From assembly GCA_965262115.1 (NCBI GenBank), contig OZ253496.1:1184001-1248000 (forward strand): a stretch of DNA of 64,000 bases, written 5' to 3'. Position numbers and translations under genes: made by a program. The stretch is from Nitrospinales bacterium (GTDB lineage: Bacteria; Nitrospinota; Nitrospinia; Nitrospinales; VA-1). Below the pieces are notes generated by a model. It made no database searches, was not told where the DNA came from, and saw only the letters and a program-made list of their open reading frames with translations. Below, in pieces: positions 1,319-46,690 of this stretch (position 1 is the stretch's first letter; each line of letters begins with the position of its first letter).

Positions 1319-1445
1319 CACCCCCTAGCGGGGGAGGCTGTGATATCCCCAACATTACCTTCATGCCCCGAATGGGTAAACTGGCAAGGGCAAATTATCC
1401 AAGATAATTCATTCTCGCCAAACGAGTCATTGCAATCTACCACTG
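1319..1445. repeat. Composite intergenic repeat (module A reversed plus degenerate module B)
   Basis: GGCTGTGATATCCCC...CTTCATGCCCCGAATGGGTAAA followed by CCAAGATAATTCATTCTCGCCAAA..CATTGC; related to copies near 3580-3712, 23640-23745 and 42893-43043. Confidence 0.65.
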
Positions 1446-1458
1446 GCAGTTACGCCAG

Positions 1459-3057
1459 TCAGGGTAATTCCAGCGCCTTAAGTCTTTGCCACATGGAAAT
1501 GACTTTTCGGCCGTTACGATCCTGGTGTTTTCCGTCCCAAATGGCGAACGCCACAAGTACGGGATTTTTTCTTTTAAACTTTATATCCCATTTATTCAAA
1601 GAATCCAAGGTCCGAAAGAACACCACGCTCCATTTTCCCTCTTTCCAAACCCCTTTGCCCAGCACATTCTGCTTGGTTTGAGGCTGGGGAGTCAGCGTCC
1701 CAAACCCTTCTGCATTCAACTCTTCAACAGGAACATCCCTGAATGGATTGAGCGCATCGACCGGGTTGACTTCACCCCCGAAGATCATGGTATCCAAATC
1801 CAGACCTTTGGTGGCGTATTCGAGCTTTTCCTTGGTTTCAATTTCCGTTTGCCAGTCCGCCCGCCACTGCCAGATATTGACCACTTTGCCCCGGTTTCCC
1901 ATGCCAAAGAACGGCTCATTGTGACCGTGTTTGTGTAACAACACCTCGCCCAGAGCAAACTCCATGGCGATGGCGTCCTTAAAATCCTGATGGCGGCTCG
2001 AAGTCCGGTCCGGCTGGGAATCTTCCCACACCAACCGGAAGGCGATTCCCTCATCATTCACGACAGACTGGAACTGAATCTGGTCAACCGGATCCCTGCG
2101 CGCATTAAGAGGCATCGTGTGTATGTTCTGAACCGGAACATTTTCCCACAATGGATTCTCCGGGTCCATGTCAATTTCCTGATCAACGCGATACGTGGTC
2201 AGGTCTATTTCATATTGGGCCGGTTTGAATTTCTCTTTCCTGATTTCAGATTCAAGATAGGAGGACAAATCCCACCGTTCTTCATCCGTCAGGTGATTGT
2301 AAGATTTCATCGGGGTGCCATCGATCCCCGTTGTTAAAATCAGGAACAAGTCTTTCTTATCGAATCCAAATTTAAATGTATTGGGATCGGTCAGGTCATA
2401 AACGAACACTCGATGATCCCAAATATCATAAAGTTCAGCGGCAATGGGCCCGTCGCCCTTTAAATCCGTCCCATGACACCGGGAGCAACGCATTTCCTGA
2501 TAAACCTTCTTACCCCTTTCAACAGATTCGGGGGTGGATGCAGGAACCGCTGGTATCGTTATTGCCTCTTTTGGTTTTTCCTTTTCAAACTTTTTTGAAA
2601 ACGTCTTAATATATTCGACAGCGCCCGAGATTTCATCTTCCGTCAGAGCCCCTCCCCATGAAGGCATGGAAGTACCCGGAACCCCACGACTGATGGTCCG
2701 GTGAATATCCTTGTCCAGGGGAAGCGAACCAAACGGTGTGGTTCGATATTTAAACACACCCTGCCTGAAATCCCTCGGCCATGGATAAAGATAGGCCATG
2801 GCTTTACCTCCGCCATTACCATCATCACCATGGCAAAACACGCACATATGCTTGTAAACCGTGGCACCCAGGCGCAGAAGATCCTTCTCCTGACCGGGTG
2901 AAGATGCCGAACCATGAGCATTTTCCATAGGCCCGTGAGCATACAAAGGCGTTATCCCAAACACCAACCCAAACAGGACCAGAAAAAAAATCAGGCTTTT
3001 TTCGTTAACGCACTCCCAAGCTCGGAGTTGAAAGCGTATAAAGTTCTTCATTGCCAT
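1459..3057 (-). CDS. Di-haem c-type cytochrome fused to an ethylbenzene-dehydrogenase-gamma-like (DOMON) haem-binding domain
   Basis: Hydrophobic N-terminal segment, CVFCH and CSRCH motifs, 'PRDF..G.FKYRTT', C-terminal 'IAFRLVWED..FKDAIAMEF..MG..VNIWQWRA..VAFAIWDG..RNGRK'. Exact start uncertain. Confidence 0.85.
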   Translation of the reverse strand: MAMKNFIRFQLRAWECVNEKSLIFFLVLFGLVFGITPLYAHGPMENAHGSASSPGQEKDLLRLGATVYKHMCVFCHGDDGNGGGKAMAYLYPWPRDFRQGVFKYRTTPFGSLPLDKDIHRTISRGVPGTSMPSWGGALTEDEISGAVEYIKTFSKKFEKEKPKEAITIPAVPASTPESVERGKKVYQEMRCSRCHGTDLKGDGPIAAELYDIWDHRVFVYDLTDPNTFKFGFDKKDLFLILTTGIDGTPMKSYNHLTDEERWDLSSYLESEIRKEKFKPAQYEIDLTTYRVDQEIDMDPENPLWENVPVQNIHTMPLNARRDPVDQIQFQSVVNDEGIAFRLVWEDSQPDRTSSRHQDFKDAIAMEFALGEVLLHKHGHNEPFFGMGNRGKVVNIWQWRADWQTEIETKEKLEYATKGLDLDTMIFGGEVNPVDALNPFRDVPVEELNAEGFGTLTPQPQTKQNVLGKGVWKEGKWSVVFFRTLDSLNKWDIKFKRKNPVLVAFAIWDGKHQDRNGRKVISMWQRLKALELP

Positions 3058-3478
3058 TTAAACCATCTTCCGCGACATCCACCCAGATATCATTGCAGTT
3101 GCGTTTCGAATCAACACCTTTGCAATAAAAGAGCGGATTGCGATTGGCAAAAAACACCACCGGATGGGAAAAGTAAACACTCAAGTTATCGAACTTGGCA
3201 ATCTCAATGGCCTGCTCTATCGTAGTCTCTTCAGCTGAGGCCTTGCGGATCACTTTTCGAATGACCATATAATCCAGCTTGCCTTCCCGATCCAAATCGT
3301 AGTAGGTAGAAATCAAACCGGGCACACTCAACGATTCCCAACCGCGATAGGAGGGGTGATTCCAACCAGGTTCTTTGGGAATTCCAAGATTTGACAAACC
3401 GGGGTCATCCTGCGCCCAGACCAAAACCGGCCCGAAAACAAATAAAATCAAGACAATGAGCAGACCTGGCTTTCTCAA
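3005..3478 (-). CDS. Exported hypothetical protein
   Basis: 157-aa ORF with signal peptide (VLVWA/QD) and AGGA-type RBS upstream. Confidence 0.7.
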   Translation of the reverse strand: MRKPGLLIVLILFVFGPVLVWAQDDPGLSNLGIPKEPGWNHPSYRGWESLSVPGLISTYYDLDREGKLDYMVIRKVIRKASAEETTIEQAIEIAKFDNLSVYFSHPVVFFANRNPLFYCKGVDSKRNCNDIWVDVAEDGLNGNEELYTLSTPSLGVR

Positions 3479-3579
3479 TATCCTACCTACTTTGATCGGA
3501 CGCCAAAAGCCGCCCTACCTTCTTTTGTAAAGGTTTAATACTCTTAACCTAACACATTTCGATAATCAATCAAAAGCCT

Positions 3580-3712
3580 AATCCCCACTCGGCGTACCCC
3601 TTCGGGGCATGAAGGCTGACGAGGGGCATAACATGCTGCCAACGAGCAACCGACGAGCCGCCGAGGGCAACTAGCAATAACTCAGTCTGGCTAGAAAAGG
3701 CTTGTCTCGGCT
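3580..3712. repeat. Composite intergenic repeat (module A TACCCCTTCGGGGCATGAA plus reversed module B)
   Basis: TACCCCTTCGGGGCATG at 3595-3611; GCAATAACTCAGTCTGGCTAGAAAAGGCTTGTCTCGGC is the reverse complement of a module-B-like sequence. Confidence 0.7.
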
Positions 3713-13320: not shown

Positions 13321-13513
13321 CATAAGTCGAAGAATCGAGATGCTTCGAGATACCCCTACGGGGCAAGAATTCAAAGGTCAAATATCACTAGCTCAGCATG
13401 ACAATACTGGGCCATTTTGTCATTCTGAACGATTGCATTGTCATTCTGAACGCAGTGAAGAATCTCGTTGTCTGTCGTGCCCCGCAGGGGTTCTCGGGTT
13501 ATGCAAAGCTCTC
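13311..13513 (+). mobile_element. MITE copy (TTTGCATAA...TTATGCAAAG ends) with nested module-A inserts
   Basis: Shares GCATAAGTCGA, AGCTCAGCATGACAATACTGGGCCATTTTGTCATTCTGA and GGGTTATGCAAAG with 33282-33409; extra TACCCCTACGGGGCA and TGCCCCGCAGGGGT segments. Confidence 0.85.
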
Positions 13514-16180: not shown

Positions 16181-18235
16181 ATGAAATTTTTACATAACTT
16201 ATTTCCACAGAGATTACCCGTGCCGGGCACGATGGTTAAGGAAGAGCAACCCCCCTGGCCCCTCTTGACAGGGGGGAACCTGATCGTCCCCCTGACAAGG
16301 GGGATTGAGGGGGTTAAACATTCCCCATTAACAGGCAAAAAAACTCCTGCCCGAAGACCTGGAGTAGTGAAAAGACGAACAAAAAACCTGAATCGCCGCA
16401 CCGCTTCACGGCCCGCAACGACGGCTTGCGCAAAACTCTCCTTTCTCATGGCCCTGATCCTGATCTTGCCGGTCAACGCGTGGGCTCAGTCGAGCGCGTC
16501 TCTCGACCGGATGATCAGTCAGATCGAGTCGCTGTTCCCGCCTCTTGAAGGCTATGTGATCGAGGTGGAAGGTTCCGGCCTGACTCTCGACCTCAGGCAA
16601 GGGATGCCGGTGGAACCCGGTGACCGGTTAATACTCATCCGCTATGGCCGGGAACTGTTCCACCCCGTCACCAAGAAAAAAATAGGCCGCAAGGAAACCG
16701 ATCTCGGTGAGGTGGAAGTGCTGGAAGTGAGAAAGAATTTTTCCAGAGCCCGTGCTCTGGACCCGACGGTGCTCCCGAAAGAAGGCGACGGGGTGAGAAG
16801 CCCGTTCCAAAAACTTTCATTTCTGGTCGCTCCACCCCAAATAAAAACCAAAAAGAAAGTCAATGCCAACCGCCTGCGTTACAACCTTGAATCTCGCTTA
16901 AACCGGCACCCCAGGTTTGAAGTTCCTTCATTCGACCTCGGATTGTGGATGGCCGAAGAAAAACTCAACATCAAGACGGCCCTGCAACCCAGGAACCTGG
17001 AAAAACTGCATCGCAAGGTCGAGGCCGACTTCATTCTGGTTCCCAGCGTCCGTTCTGTGAAAGGAAAAATGGCGCTGAACTACAAGCTGATCTCAGCCAT
17101 TGACGGTTCCCTTAAAAAACAAGCCGACATCATGTCCGAAGGTCTGCCGACCCCGGATGCGCCGAGGGAACGGAGTCGCGGAGCACAATCCAGCTTTAAG
17201 CACAAAGGTGATTTGTTCAAGTTTATCTCCAAACAGGAGTTTCATTATGAGATGGTCGACTTCGATGTCGGCGATTTGAACGGTGATGGCAAGAACGAGT
17301 TCGTGCTCATCGACCGCTATCGGGTGATGATATTTGAAAACAAAAAGGGCCGTTTGAAAAGAATCAGCACGGTCAGGACCAGCAAAACCGCCAACCATTT
17401 TCTCGGCGTCGATGTGGCAGACATCAACGGCAATGGCCGGGCTGAAATTTTTGTCACCAACCAGGTCGGCGACAGACTGGAATCTTTCTCTCTGGAAAGT
17501 AACCCGAAACAAAAAAGGTTCAACTATACATGGAAAGACGCCAACCTCTATTTTCGTATCATCCGGCCTATGGGGAAGCGGCCCATATTGATGTCGCAAA
17601 GTCCCGGATTTCAAAATCCGTTTCACGGCCCGATCAAAAAAGTGTTGTTCAAAAACGGAAAATACCGGCAAGGCCCCAAGCTGAACACCCCCGACGTATA
17701 TGGGACACACTTCATATTATATGGACTGACGCAAGAAGACCTGAACCGTAACGGGACGGCGGAAACCATAGTGCTTGATAATAATTATCATTTAAGAGTA
17801 TATGCCGCCAACGGGCGGCTGGTAGTAAAATCAGATGATTACTACGGTCATGATCCGCGCCTGATCGAGGTCGGAGTCAAAGAGGAAATCGCCGGCCTGG
17901 TCCGTCAGGGTGAACCGGTACGTTTTAAAGGTCGGCTGGAATTTGTCAAAATGGGCGGCAGCCGCTACCTTTTGCTGCCCATGAACCAGACCCTGGGCGG
18001 AGGGTTTTTAGACCGGCTGGTGATCGTGGAAAATTCAGGCCTGGCCCTACTGCGGCTGACCGGAGAAGGCTTTGAAAAAGCCTTTGAGTCCAGCAAACAA
18101 AAGGGTTTTCTGGCAACTTACCGGGTGATTCCCCATAAGAATGGAGCCGGGGTTTATATGCTCCGGGTCGATAAGGACATTTTGACCGGCAGCGTGTTCA
18201 GCGCACTGTCGACTTATGAGTGGTCGGTTGAGTAA
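16181..18235 (+). CDS. Exported FG-GAP/VCBS-repeat protein (start may be downstream, e.g. GTG 16367)
   Basis: Signal-like 'LSFLMALILILPVNAWA', repeats 'DVGDLNGDGKNE', 'DVADINGNGRAEI', 'DLNRNGTAETI'. Confidence 0.8.
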   Translation: MKFLHNLFPQRLPVPGTMVKEEQPPWPLLTGGNLIVPLTRGIEGVKHSPLTGKKTPARRPGVVKRRTKNLNRRTASRPATTACAKLSFLMALILILPVNAWAQSSASLDRMISQIESLFPPLEGYVIEVEGSGLTLDLRQGMPVEPGDRLILIRYGRELFHPVTKKKIGRKETDLGEVEVLEVRKNFSRARALDPTVLPKEGDGVRSPFQKLSFLVAPPQIKTKKKVNANRLRYNLESRLNRHPRFEVPSFDLGLWMAEEKLNIKTALQPRNLEKLHRKVEADFILVPSVRSVKGKMALNYKLISAIDGSLKKQADIMSEGLPTPDAPRERSRGAQSSFKHKGDLFKFISKQEFHYEMVDFDVGDLNGDGKNEFVLIDRYRVMIFENKKGRLKRISTVRTSKTANHFLGVDVADINGNGRAEIFVTNQVGDRLESFSLESNPKQKRFNYTWKDANLYFRIIRPMGKRPILMSQSPGFQNPFHGPIKKVLFKNGKYRQGPKLNTPDVYGTHFILYGLTQEDLNRNGTAETIVLDNNYHLRVYAANGRLVVKSDDYYGHDPRLIEVGVKEEIAGLVRQGEPVRFKGRLEFVKMGGSRYLLLPMNQTLGGGFLDRLVIVENSGLALLRLTGEGFEKAFESSKQKGFLATYRVIPHKNGAGVYMLRVDKDILTGSVFSALSTYEWSVE

Positions 18236-21680: not shown

Positions 21681-21795
21681 CAACCCCCTGCACCCCCCTG
21701 CACCCCCCTTATCAGGGGGAATTTTAATAGACCCCTCTTTATTACAAAGTACCCGTACCGGGCATGAAGTTTATGGAAGGTAATATCACAAGGGC
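21681..21795. repeat. CCCCCTT..AGGGGG palindromic element with nested module A
   Basis: Inverted homolog of 46530-46690 (ACAAAGTACCCGTACCGGGCATGAA...ATATCACAAGGGCTGGGG). Confidence 0.75.
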
Positions 21796-24177: not shown

Positions 24178-24236
24178 TCGTGCCCCGCAGGGGTAATCTC
24201 GCTTTTTTGTTTTTTTTAGACTTACGCAAAGCTCTC
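24178..24236 (-). mobile_element. MITE end fragment
   Basis: TCGTGCCCCGCAGGGGT plus GACTTACGCAAAGCTCTC (reverse complement resembles GAGACCTTTGCATAAGTC). Confidence 0.55.
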
Positions 24237-28613: not shown

Positions 28614-28827
28614 CTGAATCTCCCTATTCATTGACGTTGCAGGTATTTTCCTCAATCTCACGCCGAAAAGCAAGCTGGCCTGACAATCGGAATTGAAAGG
28701 TTGATCCCCAAGGACCGGTTCTTTATACTCAGGAAGCCCCGGTTCTATCAGGGCTATGGCTCCAACCCGGCTAAAGAAGCCTTGAAAATCAGCCGATCAA
28801 TAATAGACCCCCTTGTATGTTGTTCAT

Positions 28828-29044
28828 AAGGGGAATTTGTAGTAGTTGTACCTGTGAGCCCTGTGGGAAGCCGGTTTTGTGTTTTCCACAAGGCTCACAG
28901 GGTTTGATTCAGGGCACAATAGATCGTTTACCCCTTGGGCTTTTAAGCCCGTCCCGAAGCGCAGATTGTTGTGTCCTATTTTGATTAACCCGAACAGTTG
29001 CCTGGGCCACTGAGCCCGCATCGGCAAGGCTGGGAGACCAAATT
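28828..29044 (+). ncRNA. Putative IS110 bridge RNA
   Basis: 5' hairpin 28851-28901; target loop 28911-28977 with TTTACCCCT and CCCGAAG; donor loop with ACAGTTGC (28994-29001) and CAAG (29025-29028) matching the element's circle junction. Ends approximate. Confidence 0.8.
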
Positions 29045-29995
29045 ATGAATCAGAAACCCCATTTTATTGGCATCGATATTTCTAAACTCCATCTGGATGT
29101 TGCTGACAGCATGACTCAAGAAACCTGGCAAACCGCTAACAATGAAGAAGGGATTGCTGGTTTGGTCGAGAGTTTATCCGCCTTAAATCCTCCATTGATC
29201 GTTTTGGAAGCCACAGGCGGCTTAGAGATCCCGTTGGCTTCGGCCCTGGTTGCGGGTCGACTGCCAGTAGCCGTGGTCAACCCACGGCAAGTTCGTGATT
29301 TTGCCAAAGCCACCGGGAAACTGGCAAAAACCGATGTCATTGATTCTCTTGTGCTGGCCCATTTTGCCAAGGCCATACGTCCTGAGGTCAGGAAAATCAA
29401 AGACGAAGAATCTCTGGAACTCTCAGCTCTAGTGACACGCCGTCGCCAGTTGATCGAGATGCTGACCAAAGAAAAAACCCGTCTAAAACAAGCTCCAAAA
29501 TGGATATGTAAAGACATTAAGGAGCATATCGAATCTCTTAAAAAACGCTTGCGAAAAATCGATGGCGACCTTTCCAGAACCATCAAAAACAGTTCTGCCT
29601 GGCGTGAGCACGACCAGATCATACAAAGTGTTCCCGGTGCCGGTCCCGTTCTGGCTGTCAACCTCTTGGCCGGGGTTCCGGAACTTGGAGTTCTTAATCA
29701 GAAGCAAATCGCCGCCCTCATCGGTCTCGCTCCCCTCAATCGGGACAGCGGAAAGTTCCGGGGCCGCCGGTGTATCTGGGGCGGTCGCGCCAATGTGCGT
29801 GCCGCTTTATACATGGCCGCCGTCACTGCCATGCAGCATAATCCCGTGATTCGTACCTTTTACACACGCCTCATCGAAAAGGGCAAACCCTTTAAAGTTG
29901 CCATTACCGCATGCATGAGAAAGTTATTAACGATCATCAATACCATGATCAAAACAAAAACACTCTGGAATGAAAATCTCATTGCCAGCACTTGA
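29045..29995 (+). CDS. IS110-family DEDD recombinase/transposase
   Basis: 'IGIDISK', 'VLEATG', 'KTDVIDS', 'SVPGAG', 'RDSGK', 'ACMRKLL'; 316 aa, intact. Confidence 0.96.
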   Translation: MNQKPHFIGIDISKLHLDVADSMTQETWQTANNEEGIAGLVESLSALNPPLIVLEATGGLEIPLASALVAGRLPVAVVNPRQVRDFAKATGKLAKTDVIDSLVLAHFAKAIRPEVRKIKDEESLELSALVTRRRQLIEMLTKEKTRLKQAPKWICKDIKEHIESLKKRLRKIDGDLSRTIKNSSAWREHDQIIQSVPGAGPVLAVNLLAGVPELGVLNQKQIAALIGLAPLNRDSGKFRGRRCIWGGRANVRAALYMAAVTAMQHNPVIRTFYTRLIEKGKPFKVAITACMRKLLTIINTMIKTKTLWNENLIAST

Positions 29996-30096
29996 CATTT
30001 AACACAGTTGCTTCGGGGCATGGGTGAAATCCCCAACATCTGGTTCCTTCCCGGAACAAGTAGGCAGAGTATGACCCTTTTAGTAGGACAATCAGG

Positions 30097-31682: not shown

Positions 31683-32411
31683 ATGACATTCCAGAATAAA
31701 ACCCTCAAAGTTGCATTTTTGGGAACAGTATTGATAATTCTTGCGGGCAATGTTTATTCTCTATTTTTTTACGCCAATCTCATTCCTTTGCATGTGGATG
31801 AAGGGAGATATTTTTTTCATTTTACGAACACATTATTTCAAAATAGATTTGAACTTTATTTTCAATACCCAGTTCATTCACTTACTATTTATTTGGCAAA
31901 AGTGTCTCTCTGGATTTTTGGAAAAACTGGAATTGGTTGGAGACTCCCGGTAATTCTTTTTTCCGTGCTGAGCGGGGGCATTCTTTTTTATTTTGTATGC
32001 AAAACAGTTCATTCATTCCGAGTGGCAACTCTGGCCCTGAGCTTTCTGTTCCTCAACCCATTCTTCATTCACTATTCGCACGAATTAAGGGGATATCCGT
32101 CCCTGTTTTTCTTCGCAGTTTGCAGTTATGCATGTTTGTGGCTTCTGTTTGAAAGAAAAAGTCAGTTCGGCCCATGGTGTGGACTTTTTTTATCCCTTTT
32201 GGCTTGCTATGTGGCAAGCATTTCATCCTTAATGTTTTTCTTTGTATTTCTTTTCGTGATATGGATTCTAAGGTTGCTTGAGCATTTTTCATATTTTCAA
32301 GATCATTTAAAGCTTTTCAACAATATAAATACTAAGCATTTATTTATATTTTCCTTGGTTTTTTCGATTGTTGTCCTTTTTATTGTTTTCAAGGTCGACT
32401 ATAAAACTTGA
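31683..32411 (+). pseudogene. GT-C (PMT/ArnT-like) membrane glycosyltransferase truncated by IS30
   Basis: 'LHVDEG', 'RLP', 'YSHELRGY'; stop coincides with IS30 left end. Start uncertain (31599 or 31683). Confidence 0.7.
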
Positions 32412-32506
32412 GTTCAAGTTGTAAGTACAACTTTTATGGTTGATTAAGAGGCAAGCTGGGATAAACTCCACAGCGTTTCTCAAATCGCCAAATCAAAGGA
32501 GCGCGG

Positions 32507-33618
32507 ATGAGAGTTTATGCCCAACTTACCCAAGGACAACGATACCAGATTGAAGCACTCTTAAAAACGGGTCATAACCAAACAATGATAGCCAAAGTAC
32601 TTACCGTCCATAAATCAACGATCAGCCGTGAGATCAGACGTAATCGAGGTCGCCGTGGTTACCGGCCAAAACAAGCCCAGGAGAGGGCTGTGATGCGCCG
32701 TTTAATCAAATCCGTACCGCGCATCGGTTTTTCTACCTGGACCATGGTGGACTCCCTGATCAAACAAGACTGGAGCCCGGAACAGATCTCAGGCCGTTTG
32801 TTCAAAGAACAAGGCATTTCGATCAGTCACGAACGCATTTACCTCTATATTTACCAGAACAAACAACAAGGCGGTGATCTTCATAATCACCTGCGTTGCC
32901 AGAAAAAACGCCGCAAACGTTATGGTAAACAAGATCGCCGGGGACGCATTCCCAACCGCATCAGCATTGATAAACGCCCGGCTATCGTTAACAACAAGTC
33001 CAGGATCGGTGACTGGGAAGGCGATCTCATCATTGGCAACGGACACCGGGGGGTCATCGCCACCCTTGTAGAACGCAAAACCAAATATACGGTTCTGGCC
33101 AAATCGAACACCCAACAAGCCCGGTCGGTACGCCAAACCCTCGAACAAGGACTTAGGCCTCATAGAAACAGGGTTCACACAATCACCTGTGACAACGGGC
33201 TGGAGTTTGCCGAACACCAGAAAATGGCGCAATCCCTGTCGGCTAATATCTACTTTGCCCATCCTTATGCTTCTTGGGAACGAGACCTTTGCATAAGTCG
33301 AAAAATCGAAGAATCTAGATGCTTCGACAAGCTCAGCATGACAATACTGGGCCATTTTGTCATTCTGAGAAACAAGGTGACGAAGAATCTCGGGTTATGC
33401 AAAGGTCTCCTTGGGAACGGGGCCTGAACGAAAACACCCATGGACTCATTCGACAATATTTACCAAAATCACCGCCCCTGAATAACATCACCCACAAGAA
33501 ACTGGGCACCATCATGGATCAACTCAATCATCGACCCAGAAAAACACTCGACTTTAAAACACCCTGTGAACTATTCTTCAAAAAACAAACTTTACTAACT
33601 GTTGCACTTACTAGTTGA
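32507..33618 (+). pseudogene. IS30 transposase split by MITE
   Basis: HTH 'HKSTISREIRRN', 'WSPEQI', 'GDWEGD', 'CDNGLEF', 'PYASWER' then 'GLNENTHGLIRQYLPK...RPRKTL' resumes after the insertion. Confidence 0.92.
33282..33409 (+). mobile_element. 128-bp MITE with 15-bp perfect TIRs and 9-bp TSD
   Basis: GAGACCTTTGCATAA...TTATGCAAAGGTCTC flanked by CTTGGGAAC (33273-33281, 33410-33418). Confidence 0.93.
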
Positions 33619-33651
33619 ATCCACCGGTGATTATTCAGCACCAGCAGGAAT

Positions 33652-46465: not shown

Positions 46466-46690
46466 TCCAACCCTCCCCTGGCCCCTCCCTATGAAGGGGG
46501 GGGATATTCGAGCCAAAACCCCTGGCGGTCAATCACCCCAGCCCTTGTGATATTTCTTCCTCAACTTTCATGCCCGGTACGGGTACTTTGTAAAAGAGGG
46601 GTTCATTGAAGCTCCCCCTTCTATGAAGTATCCGTTCTGGGCACGAGGGCCAGGGTTAAATATCACGGGGGTTTGGGGGGATTTGATTTT
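46466..46690. repeat. Cluster of CCCTCCCC/AGGGGG palindromes with two module-A inserts
   Basis: CCAACCCTCCCCTGGCCCCTCCCTATGAAGGG is shared with the copy near 18456-18490; inverted homology to 21681-21795. Confidence 0.75.

Follow-up and report, generated by a model that had tools for sequence, protein, structure and literature searches.

Junctions and predicted guides of a Nitrospinales IS110 element point to bridge-RNA-directed insertion into a single loop type of a 40-nt hairpin repeat that is itself likely mobile

Does the IS110 element in this stretch of DNA choose its insertion sites, and is the repeat in which it sits a fixed feature of the host or itself mobile? The stretch analyzed here (the window) comprises 64,000 nucleotides of a Nitrospinales bacterium (contig OZ253496.1 of assembly GCA_965262115.1, positions 1,184,001 to 1,248,000; G000:C1:1184001-1248000) and holds an IS110 insertion sequence (IS) and several units of a palindromic repeat of about 40 nt. 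A preliminary description, made from the sequence alone, had taken the bridge RNA target to be the core of a host repeat resembling repetitive extragenic palindromes (REPs). We compared the source genome (G000; 2.68 Mb, 94% complete) with 22 other genomes of the same genus, among them G007, G010, G013, G015, G016, and G019, and with short-read contigs. Our analysis makes it highly probable that an IS621-type IS110 element inserts into hairpins of the loop variant that matches its guide, likely directed by a bridge RNA, and that the repeat itself is probably a mobile mini-element, one that renews the targets. The direct observations beneath this reading are junction sequences, the match between guide and target, the preference for one loop type, a single empty target at an orthologous position, and alleles of relatives that lack the repeat.

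Across the genome, 26 left and 26 right IS110 junctions were located. Twenty-two of the left flanks end in TACCCCT; of the four atypical ones, one belongs to the window copy, two differ by a single base, and one is a tandem join inside the element. All 26 right flanks run on into the repeat, 23 with CTTCGGG, 2 with CTGCGGG, and 1 with CTCGGGG, and they represent 17 distinct contexts. The motif given in the preliminary description, TACCCNTNCGGG, occurs 153 times in the genome, compared with 5, 4, and 5 times in the three order-5 Markov simulations that set the chance level. Two expectations of the preliminary description, that the motif exceeds chance and that insertions favor it over unrelated sequence, were thus borne out. 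Our catalogue of the repeat contains 297 units, and most counts below use the 282 with at most one mismatch in the head.

The insertions do not sample the loop variants of the repeat evenly. Among the empty heads with a CT core, 28 have a TTC loop, 35 TGC, 41 TAC, and 30 TCC, whereas every distinct context occupied under the main guide is a TTC loop (15/15 versus 28/134; Fisher p = 1e-9). The two copies at CTGCGGG bear the matching right guide, CCCGCAG, and count as one event because they have 235 bp of right flank in common. For copy 2114485, the exact empty target, a pre-insertion allele, lies at 300511/300512 in G013. At 339796/339797, G013 lacks the entire unit that houses copy 2144619, which indicates that the repeat came first there and the IS110 element second. 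For the window copy, the search for an empty orthologous site found none, and the relatives diverge at or before 28809; nor did a circle or an empty-site joint of this copy appear in the short-read contigs, which cannot show absence and none of which crosses a whole IS110 copy. Short-read depth over the IS is about 13 to 22 times that of its flanks (runs X1, X3, and X4, which may include the source sample), and the recombinase genes comprise 15 intact, 7 frameshifted, and 2 divergent and broken ones.

Some copies are rearranged. At G000:C1:2034326 (L212), a copy lacks its first ~120 bp, and the host left target abuts left-guide DNA, with two identical 9-mers. A 163-bp duplication of the left end (G000:C1:2144619-2144782) is joined at a CT that lies within the bridge RNA gene and fits neither guide well. 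An IS110 remnant at G000:C1:2518289-2519436 contains an inverted IS3-IS110 piece, with the join within the palindromic hairpin of the left end.

By its sequence, the element shows the properties of the IS110 family and of its IS621-like group for which a test could be run (Table 1). The recombinase combines a DEDD domain (PF01548; E = 1.6e-24 in a profile search) with a C-terminal PF02371 domain (E = 1.9e-20) that has the conserved serine, and it matches the solved structures of ISCro4 (E = 9e-33) and IS621 (E = 6e-30); a named Nitrospinaceae homologue has 65% identity (L126). A CT core stands on both sides of the element, and a single CT stands in the empty sites (the empty IS3 alleles and G013 300511/300512). 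The ends are asymmetric (231 bp on the left, 15 bp on the right), and the long left end is predicted to encode a structured bridge RNA, a hairpin followed by two looped stems (z = -4.52). An Rfam search of the window gave zero matches. The left donor guide matches the element's own right end, and discontinuous pairing like that predicted for the right donor guide has been described for bridge RNA (PMC11208160). Under the scheme of PMC13626964, we count a single handshake pair prior to exchange but two pairs and a wobble once exchange has taken place, which would favor the direction of insertion.

Table 1. Positions of the IS110 element, its predicted parts, and the repeat units within the window
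Feature	Positions	Strand	Evidence
IS110 element, 1197 bp; CT cores either side at 28812-28813 and 30011-30012	28814..30010	+	
IS110 recombinase, 316 aa; motifs D11/E55/D97/D100 and S235	29045..29995	+	
Predicted bridge RNA (hairpin at the 5' end, then loops for binding target and donor)	28845..29040	+	fold z = -4.52, clade covariation
Left target guide, TTTACCCCT	28927..28935	+	
Right target guide, CCCGAAG; pairs with CTTCGGG	28953..28959	+	
Left donor guide, ACAGTTGCC	28994..29002	+	
Right donor guide, 9 nt; predicted discontinuous pairing with left-end CTTGTAT	29020..29028	+	
TTGACA; on circularization would form a -35/-10 pair with TATGTT (28816-28821) at 17-bp spacing, a predicted junction promoter	29992..29997	+	
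Right half of split repeat head, then an apparent degenerate inverted unit (read by eye)	30011..30060	+	
Repeat unit, 39 nt, TTC loop; intact empty target of the main guide, CT core 3600-3601	3595..3633	+	sequence, relatives, short-read contigs
Repeat unit, 40 nt, core C to A at 1373; predicted nontarget	1339..1378	-	sequence, orthologues
Repeat unit, 39 nt, TAC loop, within another palindromic repeat; no G000 guide matches	13351..13389	+	
Degenerate head, TGC loop, without recognizable tail	13478..13492	-	
G-type head (no CT core), degenerate tail	16215..16229	+	
G-type unit, 41 nt, no CT core	21750..21790	+	
Head, TGC loop, tail not found; fits a divergent guide only	24181..24195	-	
G-type unit, 40 nt, no CT core	46546..46585	-	
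Degenerate G-type unit, absent from the preliminary description	46629..46667	+	

The target guides covary with the flanks of the insertions in relatives as well. From 160 homologous loci, 68 could be parsed, giving 42 guides for each side. Per distinct guide, the left guide agrees with its flank at 4.62 of 7 noncore positions (shuffle mean 2.76, maximum 3.43); for the right guide, agreement reaches 4.57 of 5 positions (shuffle mean 1.45, maximum 2.05); at the sequence level, the guides are real. The two most distal positions of the left guide match poorly throughout the clade (0.10 and 0.33). In the independently assembled genome G015, 18 of 19 right ends continue into the repeat, and 17 left ends were counted, by a target-containing pattern only. 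Close relatives of the element have right guides of types that fit TTC, TGC, TCC, and TAC loops. Whether loop variants escape the element was examined through the share of TTC among empty heads. This share is low in the two IS-rich genomes (28/198 and 4/38) and high in G013 (220/374) and G007 (77/86), but it is 3/36 in G010, in which no IS was detected, and adding the occupied sites lifts G000 to the level of G019. Two related IS110 elements (L126:1170-2600 and L062) have the same scaffold with guides toward a different C-rich/G-rich palindrome, and several others in the clade are inserted in GTCATTCTGAGCG-type repeats.

What, then, does the window itself offer as targets? The preliminary description had reported several empty ones. 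The site at 3595-3611 (TACCCCTTCGGGGCATG) does match the guides as it claimed, at 7 of 9 positions on the left and 7 of 7 on the right, and its 7-nt left match is typical of used sites, given the poor clade-wide match of the two distal positions. In G007, the host site is present without the repeat unit, and short-read contigs of runs X2 and X3 cross the unit with the site empty; no IS-type loose end was seen there among the short-read ends listed, although such contigs cannot show absence. The reverse complement of 1361-1380 agrees with the 14-nt predicted target everywhere except the core C, again as had been described; the orthologues in G013 and G019 retain the full 14/14 target, and thus the core change is derived. 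A contig of run X7 skips 43 bases around 1339-1378, with 3 letters between. The six further variants listed (about 13351, 13478, 16215, 21749, 24181, and 46560) are all real members or heads of the family, but they are not equivalent targets: the first has a TAC loop, the TGC loops at 13478 and 24181 match guides from only two divergent, broken IS110 copies, and the units at 16215, 21750, and 46546-46585 are of a CCCG-TNC-CGGG type in which GT replaces the CT core. The window therefore contains a single intact empty target for the main guide, that at 3595. At the window IS110 itself, the preliminary description correctly gave a left-guide match of only 5 nt (28809-28813); half-match insertion, as described in 10.64898/2026.08.31.748434, could explain this poor fit.

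The repeat has a definite structure. Units are mostly 39 to 41 nt long; TACCC-S-TNC-S-GGGCA is followed by a single position, N, then by GAA, a purine-rich central part that varies, ATCAC, and a final position, N'. The pair that closes the loop covaries (C-G in 168 units, G-C in 77, and T-A in 12), and on the minus strand the hairpin can be read as a GNA triloop. Positions N and N' hold complementary bases in 38/39, 61/67, and 164/183 units and in 125/139 distinct strict sequences. DNA folding of single units shows no improvement over shuffled sequences (z between -1.3 and +0.3); hence, the hairpin is called from the covariation of the closing pair.

Several observations make it likely that the repeat moves. 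At syntenic sites of G013, 15 units are precisely absent, 19 are present, and 10 differ. Rejoined flanks were found elsewhere for 66 of the 282 units at offset 0,0, the commonest offset. Units sit in intergenic palindromes, within their own copies, and within an element that we take, by its motifs, to be an IS3; all 17 IS3 copies examined, 10 with an IS110 insertion and 7 without, carry a unit at the orfA/orfB junction. Three of the IS110-free IS3 copies (G000:C1:603940, 411509, and 1658389) differ by one base in the right target (TCGTGG), a change that no occupied copy has. The repeat occurs in 20 of the 22 other genomes of the genus and in 0 of 18 outside it, and strict-motif counts range from 0 to 374 across the one genus.

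Could it nevertheless be an ordinary, static host REP, a terminator or stability hairpin whose mobility is only apparent? Like REPs, which are palindromes of 20 to 40 bp, the repeat is a short, extragenic palindrome with hundreds of copies, and some REP families also lie inside other palindromes (PMC3733652). As with REPs and REPINs, it serves as an IS target and is presumed to be nonautonomous mobile DNA. REPs, in contrast, carry tetranucleotide tags and are tied to RAYT transposases (PMC3733652 and PMC3116915), and the 40-nt unit has no GTAG/CGTC tetranucleotide at an end: it ends in TACCC and ATCAC-N, and its flanks have no fixed tag. Its hairpin is flush with one end, the minus strand forms a GNA loop, and the identity of the final base covaries with that of the base next to the hairpin. 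A search for RAYT genes (PF01797) found 0 in G000, and none was found in the two repeat-richest genomes. PF01797 genes occur in 7 of 23 genomes; at the 7 loci read, the gene is never flanked by the 40-nt unit, and the genes have no tblastn match in G000. Together with the precise presence and absence at the 15 syntenic sites and at 3595, the insertion into IS3 and into itself, and the copy numbers that vary from 0 to 374 within the genus, this makes a static REP very improbable. The preliminary description was thus right that a REP-like repeat is targeted, but classing it as a host REP is not supported; it is likely a mobile element of ~40 nt. It is not a miniature inverted-repeat transposable element either: its ends are asymmetric, and the flanks rejoin best without a target-site duplication.

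Another alternative, that the repeat is a by-product of the IS110 element, left as scars or captured flanks, might appeal because repeat sequence follows every IS right end and because four copies at different places have a common right flank of ~55 bp. It is extremely unlikely. The repeat is found in 20/22 other genomes of the genus but the recombinase in only 4/22; G007 has 86 heads and only a distant recombinase fragment (34%); and four loop types exist in addition to the CT-less G-type units. The four right ends concerned (G000:C1:120376, 737642, 1745598, and 1895287) include in the common flank a nested unit variant that is listed only there.

Other genes near palindromes were noted in these searches. 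The ~325-aa PF01797 genes of relatives (L009-L014) are bounded by short GGGGTCAAGTC-type inverted repeats unrelated to the 40-nt unit. Seven matches came from a GIY-YIG search; among them, the small genes L002 and L004, one of which is truncated, are framed by palindromic repeats that carry the unit, with no link shown. A PF04986 search gave 0 matches, and its control also matched nowhere. Very small dispersed repeats of Nostoc have reportedly been found to be mobile (Elhai et al. 2008). A bolder reading, speculative and rather doubtful, is that the 40-nt unit would belong to a new class of ultra-small mobile DNA, moved in single-stranded form by an unrecognized enzyme that reads the GNA-loop hairpin and the internal end-marking pair; the IS110 parasite would cut the hairpin, loop variants would escape, guides would be retuned, and palindrome, IS3, mini-element, and IS110, nested one in another, would reshuffle the chromosome.

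Returning to guided insertion into a mobile repeat, we propose the following order of events. The repeat would insert first and leave no target duplication; its sites would be intergenic palindromes, other units of the repeat, and an IS3. The IS110 element would follow into the repeat, steered by its bridge RNA, and some copies would then spread inside the IS3. By analogy with IS621, the element may be excised as a circle, be expressed from the junction promoter, and recombine at the CT core, splitting the arms of the hairpin. The many near-identical copies would then likely serve as homology for flank swaps, whether by RecA, the IS110 recombinase, or the assembler.

Some points weigh against this reading. 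(i) Neither a bridge RNA nor a circle nor a new insertion was seen. (ii) The covariation of guide and target at the TGC loop is a single event, and at the orthologous site of G013 the loop is TTC. (iii) One IS3 site accounts for 10 left and 8 right junctions; copy number therefore overstates the independent insertions. (iv) Guide and flank fit imperfectly in L073 (guide CCCGTAG on a TTC site) and in G013 (guide CCTGGAG on a TTC site). (v) At syntenic G013 sites, 238 of the 282 units could not be scored. (vi) No mobilizer of the repeat was found with PF01797 in G000 and relatives.

The target strategy is known from IS621 of Escherichia coli, which targets REP elements (PMC11208160 and PMC3184786). 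The element described here shares with it a DEDD and serine recombinase, the CT core, a bridge RNA in the long left end with four guides (predicted from sequence in our case), a near-identical right half of the donor, and an abundant intergenic palindrome as target. IS621, however, inserts 3' of the REP and outside the inverted repeat (PMC3184786), whereas here the core lies within the hairpin and the arms are split; in addition, the native right guide pairs over 7 bp, not 4. Because insertion of IS110 elements into short palindromic repeats is established, the headline is no surprise. What varies is the target, a hairpin element of 40 nt that is likely mobile, is cut through its hairpin, and is carried inside an IS3. 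A literature search, with supplements such as the target tables of PMC11208160 outside its range, found no description of this element, this repeat, or a case in this genus.

A second precedent is ISPpu10 of Pseudomonas putida, which resides in REPs (~97% extragenic), borders moved or amplified blocks of more than 100 kb, and requires a stem-loop (10.64898/2026.03.19.712850). In that system, the stem-loop lies 5' of the target, and fidelity depends on it; our analysis does not show such a dependence for the element described here. The idea that hairpin structure, beyond the guide match, is required for insertion draws on the finding that all right junctions in G000 lie in the repeat while 8 equally matching nonrepeat CT sites (full right match, at least 5/7 on the left) are empty. 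This skew is weak, since 31 repeat sites reach the same match, and in the repeat-poor genome G016 only 2 of the 5 right ends with a flank lie in the repeat, against 3 in guide-like sequence outside it. We therefore consider a need for the hairpin quite unlikely. ISPpu9 (PMC12288879) is counted with ISPpu10 among the closest known systems.

Is the repeat also a safe harbor, as the preliminary description inferred? The distribution fits: 252 of the 282 units lie mostly outside open reading frames (ORFs) of at least 100 aa and 30 mostly inside, at a coding density of 78%. Among 25 rebuilt empty sites, an ATG frame of at least 100 aa crosses the junction only in six IS3 sites and in one 116-aa frame. 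The IS3 copy among the four right ends with the ~55-bp flank has a longer insert, which yields a 387-aa frame across the rebuilt site. The distribution is thus compatible with harmless targeting, but selection for it is not shown.

The suggestion that the element could drive repeat-anchored rearrangements was examined with G013 as the synteny reference (2.46 of 2.86 Mb covered, or 86%, at 94.7% identity). Forty-eight synteny breaks were found; 4 wider than 13 kb were dropped and 44 refined, 3 of which reflect ends of stretches or contigs. IS110 ends occur in 8 of the 44, compared with 1.1 (uniform) or 1.7 (intergenic) expected and a maximum of 7 in 1,000 draws each. Repeat heads occur in 14 breaks (5.1 or 6.8 expected; P = 0.002), in part as the IS flanks themselves. 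Hence, there is an association between IS110 copies and rearrangements, but a causal role is not shown.

Two explanations of these breaks differ from copies serving as homology. The first is that the IS110 recombinase itself drives large rearrangements through repeat targets, element ends, or IS-cargo-IS blocks, for which the ISPpu10-cargo-ISPpu10 blocks are a precedent (10.64898/2026.03.19.712850). Besides the excess of IS110 ends, the left flank of copy 2013362 adjoins the right flank of copy 1745599 in G013, and two blocks (1777-1810 kb and 2015-2034 kb), each bounded by copies in the same direction, are adjacent in G013 and G007; the sign of the GC skew, judged by eye, flips near 1775, 1811, 1835, 1931, 2013, and 2035 kb. 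On the other hand, 5 of the 8 IS110-linked breaks also hold IS3 ends, 36 of the 44 breaks have no IS110 end, and no break was traced to a bare repeat-repeat exchange at the CT core. Of 14 complete IS3 copies, only 2 have target duplications that agree in cis, and among the 7 IS110-free ones the number is 0, so that shuffling does not need IS110. We regard recombinase-driven rearrangement as unlikely.

The second is that the swapped flanks are assembly errors at repeats of 1.2 to 2.5 kb and that no IS110-linked rearrangement exists at all; the ISPpu10 rearrangements are resolved by long reads, and those of G000 are not. Mispairing of repeats would mimic homologous recombination, and, as noted, short-read contigs do not span the IS. 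The region G000:C1:12000-98000 has 37 to 43% GC and sparse ORFs, no anchor in the G013 stretches compared, and a broken frame with an FRPIAL motif, which we take to be typical of non-long-terminal-repeat reverse transcriptases. It looks like eukaryotic DNA joined into the contig and points to at least one chimeric join. Against misassembly, the only IS110 of the separately assembled G013 (L018; G013:C1:1856926-1858093), which is broken and lacks its left tip, also lies at a synteny break, which splits a gene that is intact in G000. Furthermore, in an IS3::IS110 copy at G000:C1:1417087-1419712 (L214), 382 bp of flanking sequence of copy 2115680 stand in place of the right part. The mosaic returns to IS3 sequence at ~11 bp of common sequence, inside an IS3 whose duplication still matches in cis, and it reads like gene conversion. 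Misassembly as the whole explanation is thus rather unlikely; homologous recombination, IS110 catalysis, and misassembly are distinguishable only with long reads.

The window contains another multicopy element at 32407-33625, presumably IS30-like, with an HTH_38 ORF at 32507-33427 and a second copy at G000 2173693-2174911.

For the biology of IS110 elements, this genome amounts to a natural specificity experiment, in which four CT-core loop variants and a core-less type are on offer and only the guide-matched variant is occupied; sister elements with one-base changes in their guides extend it. The element, of which 15 copies are intact, also offers a compact bridge recombinase whose native right guide spans 7 bp. 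Its supply of targets would be renewed by a 40-nt element that likely inserts without duplication, which bears on how REP-like sequences may spread without RAYTs.

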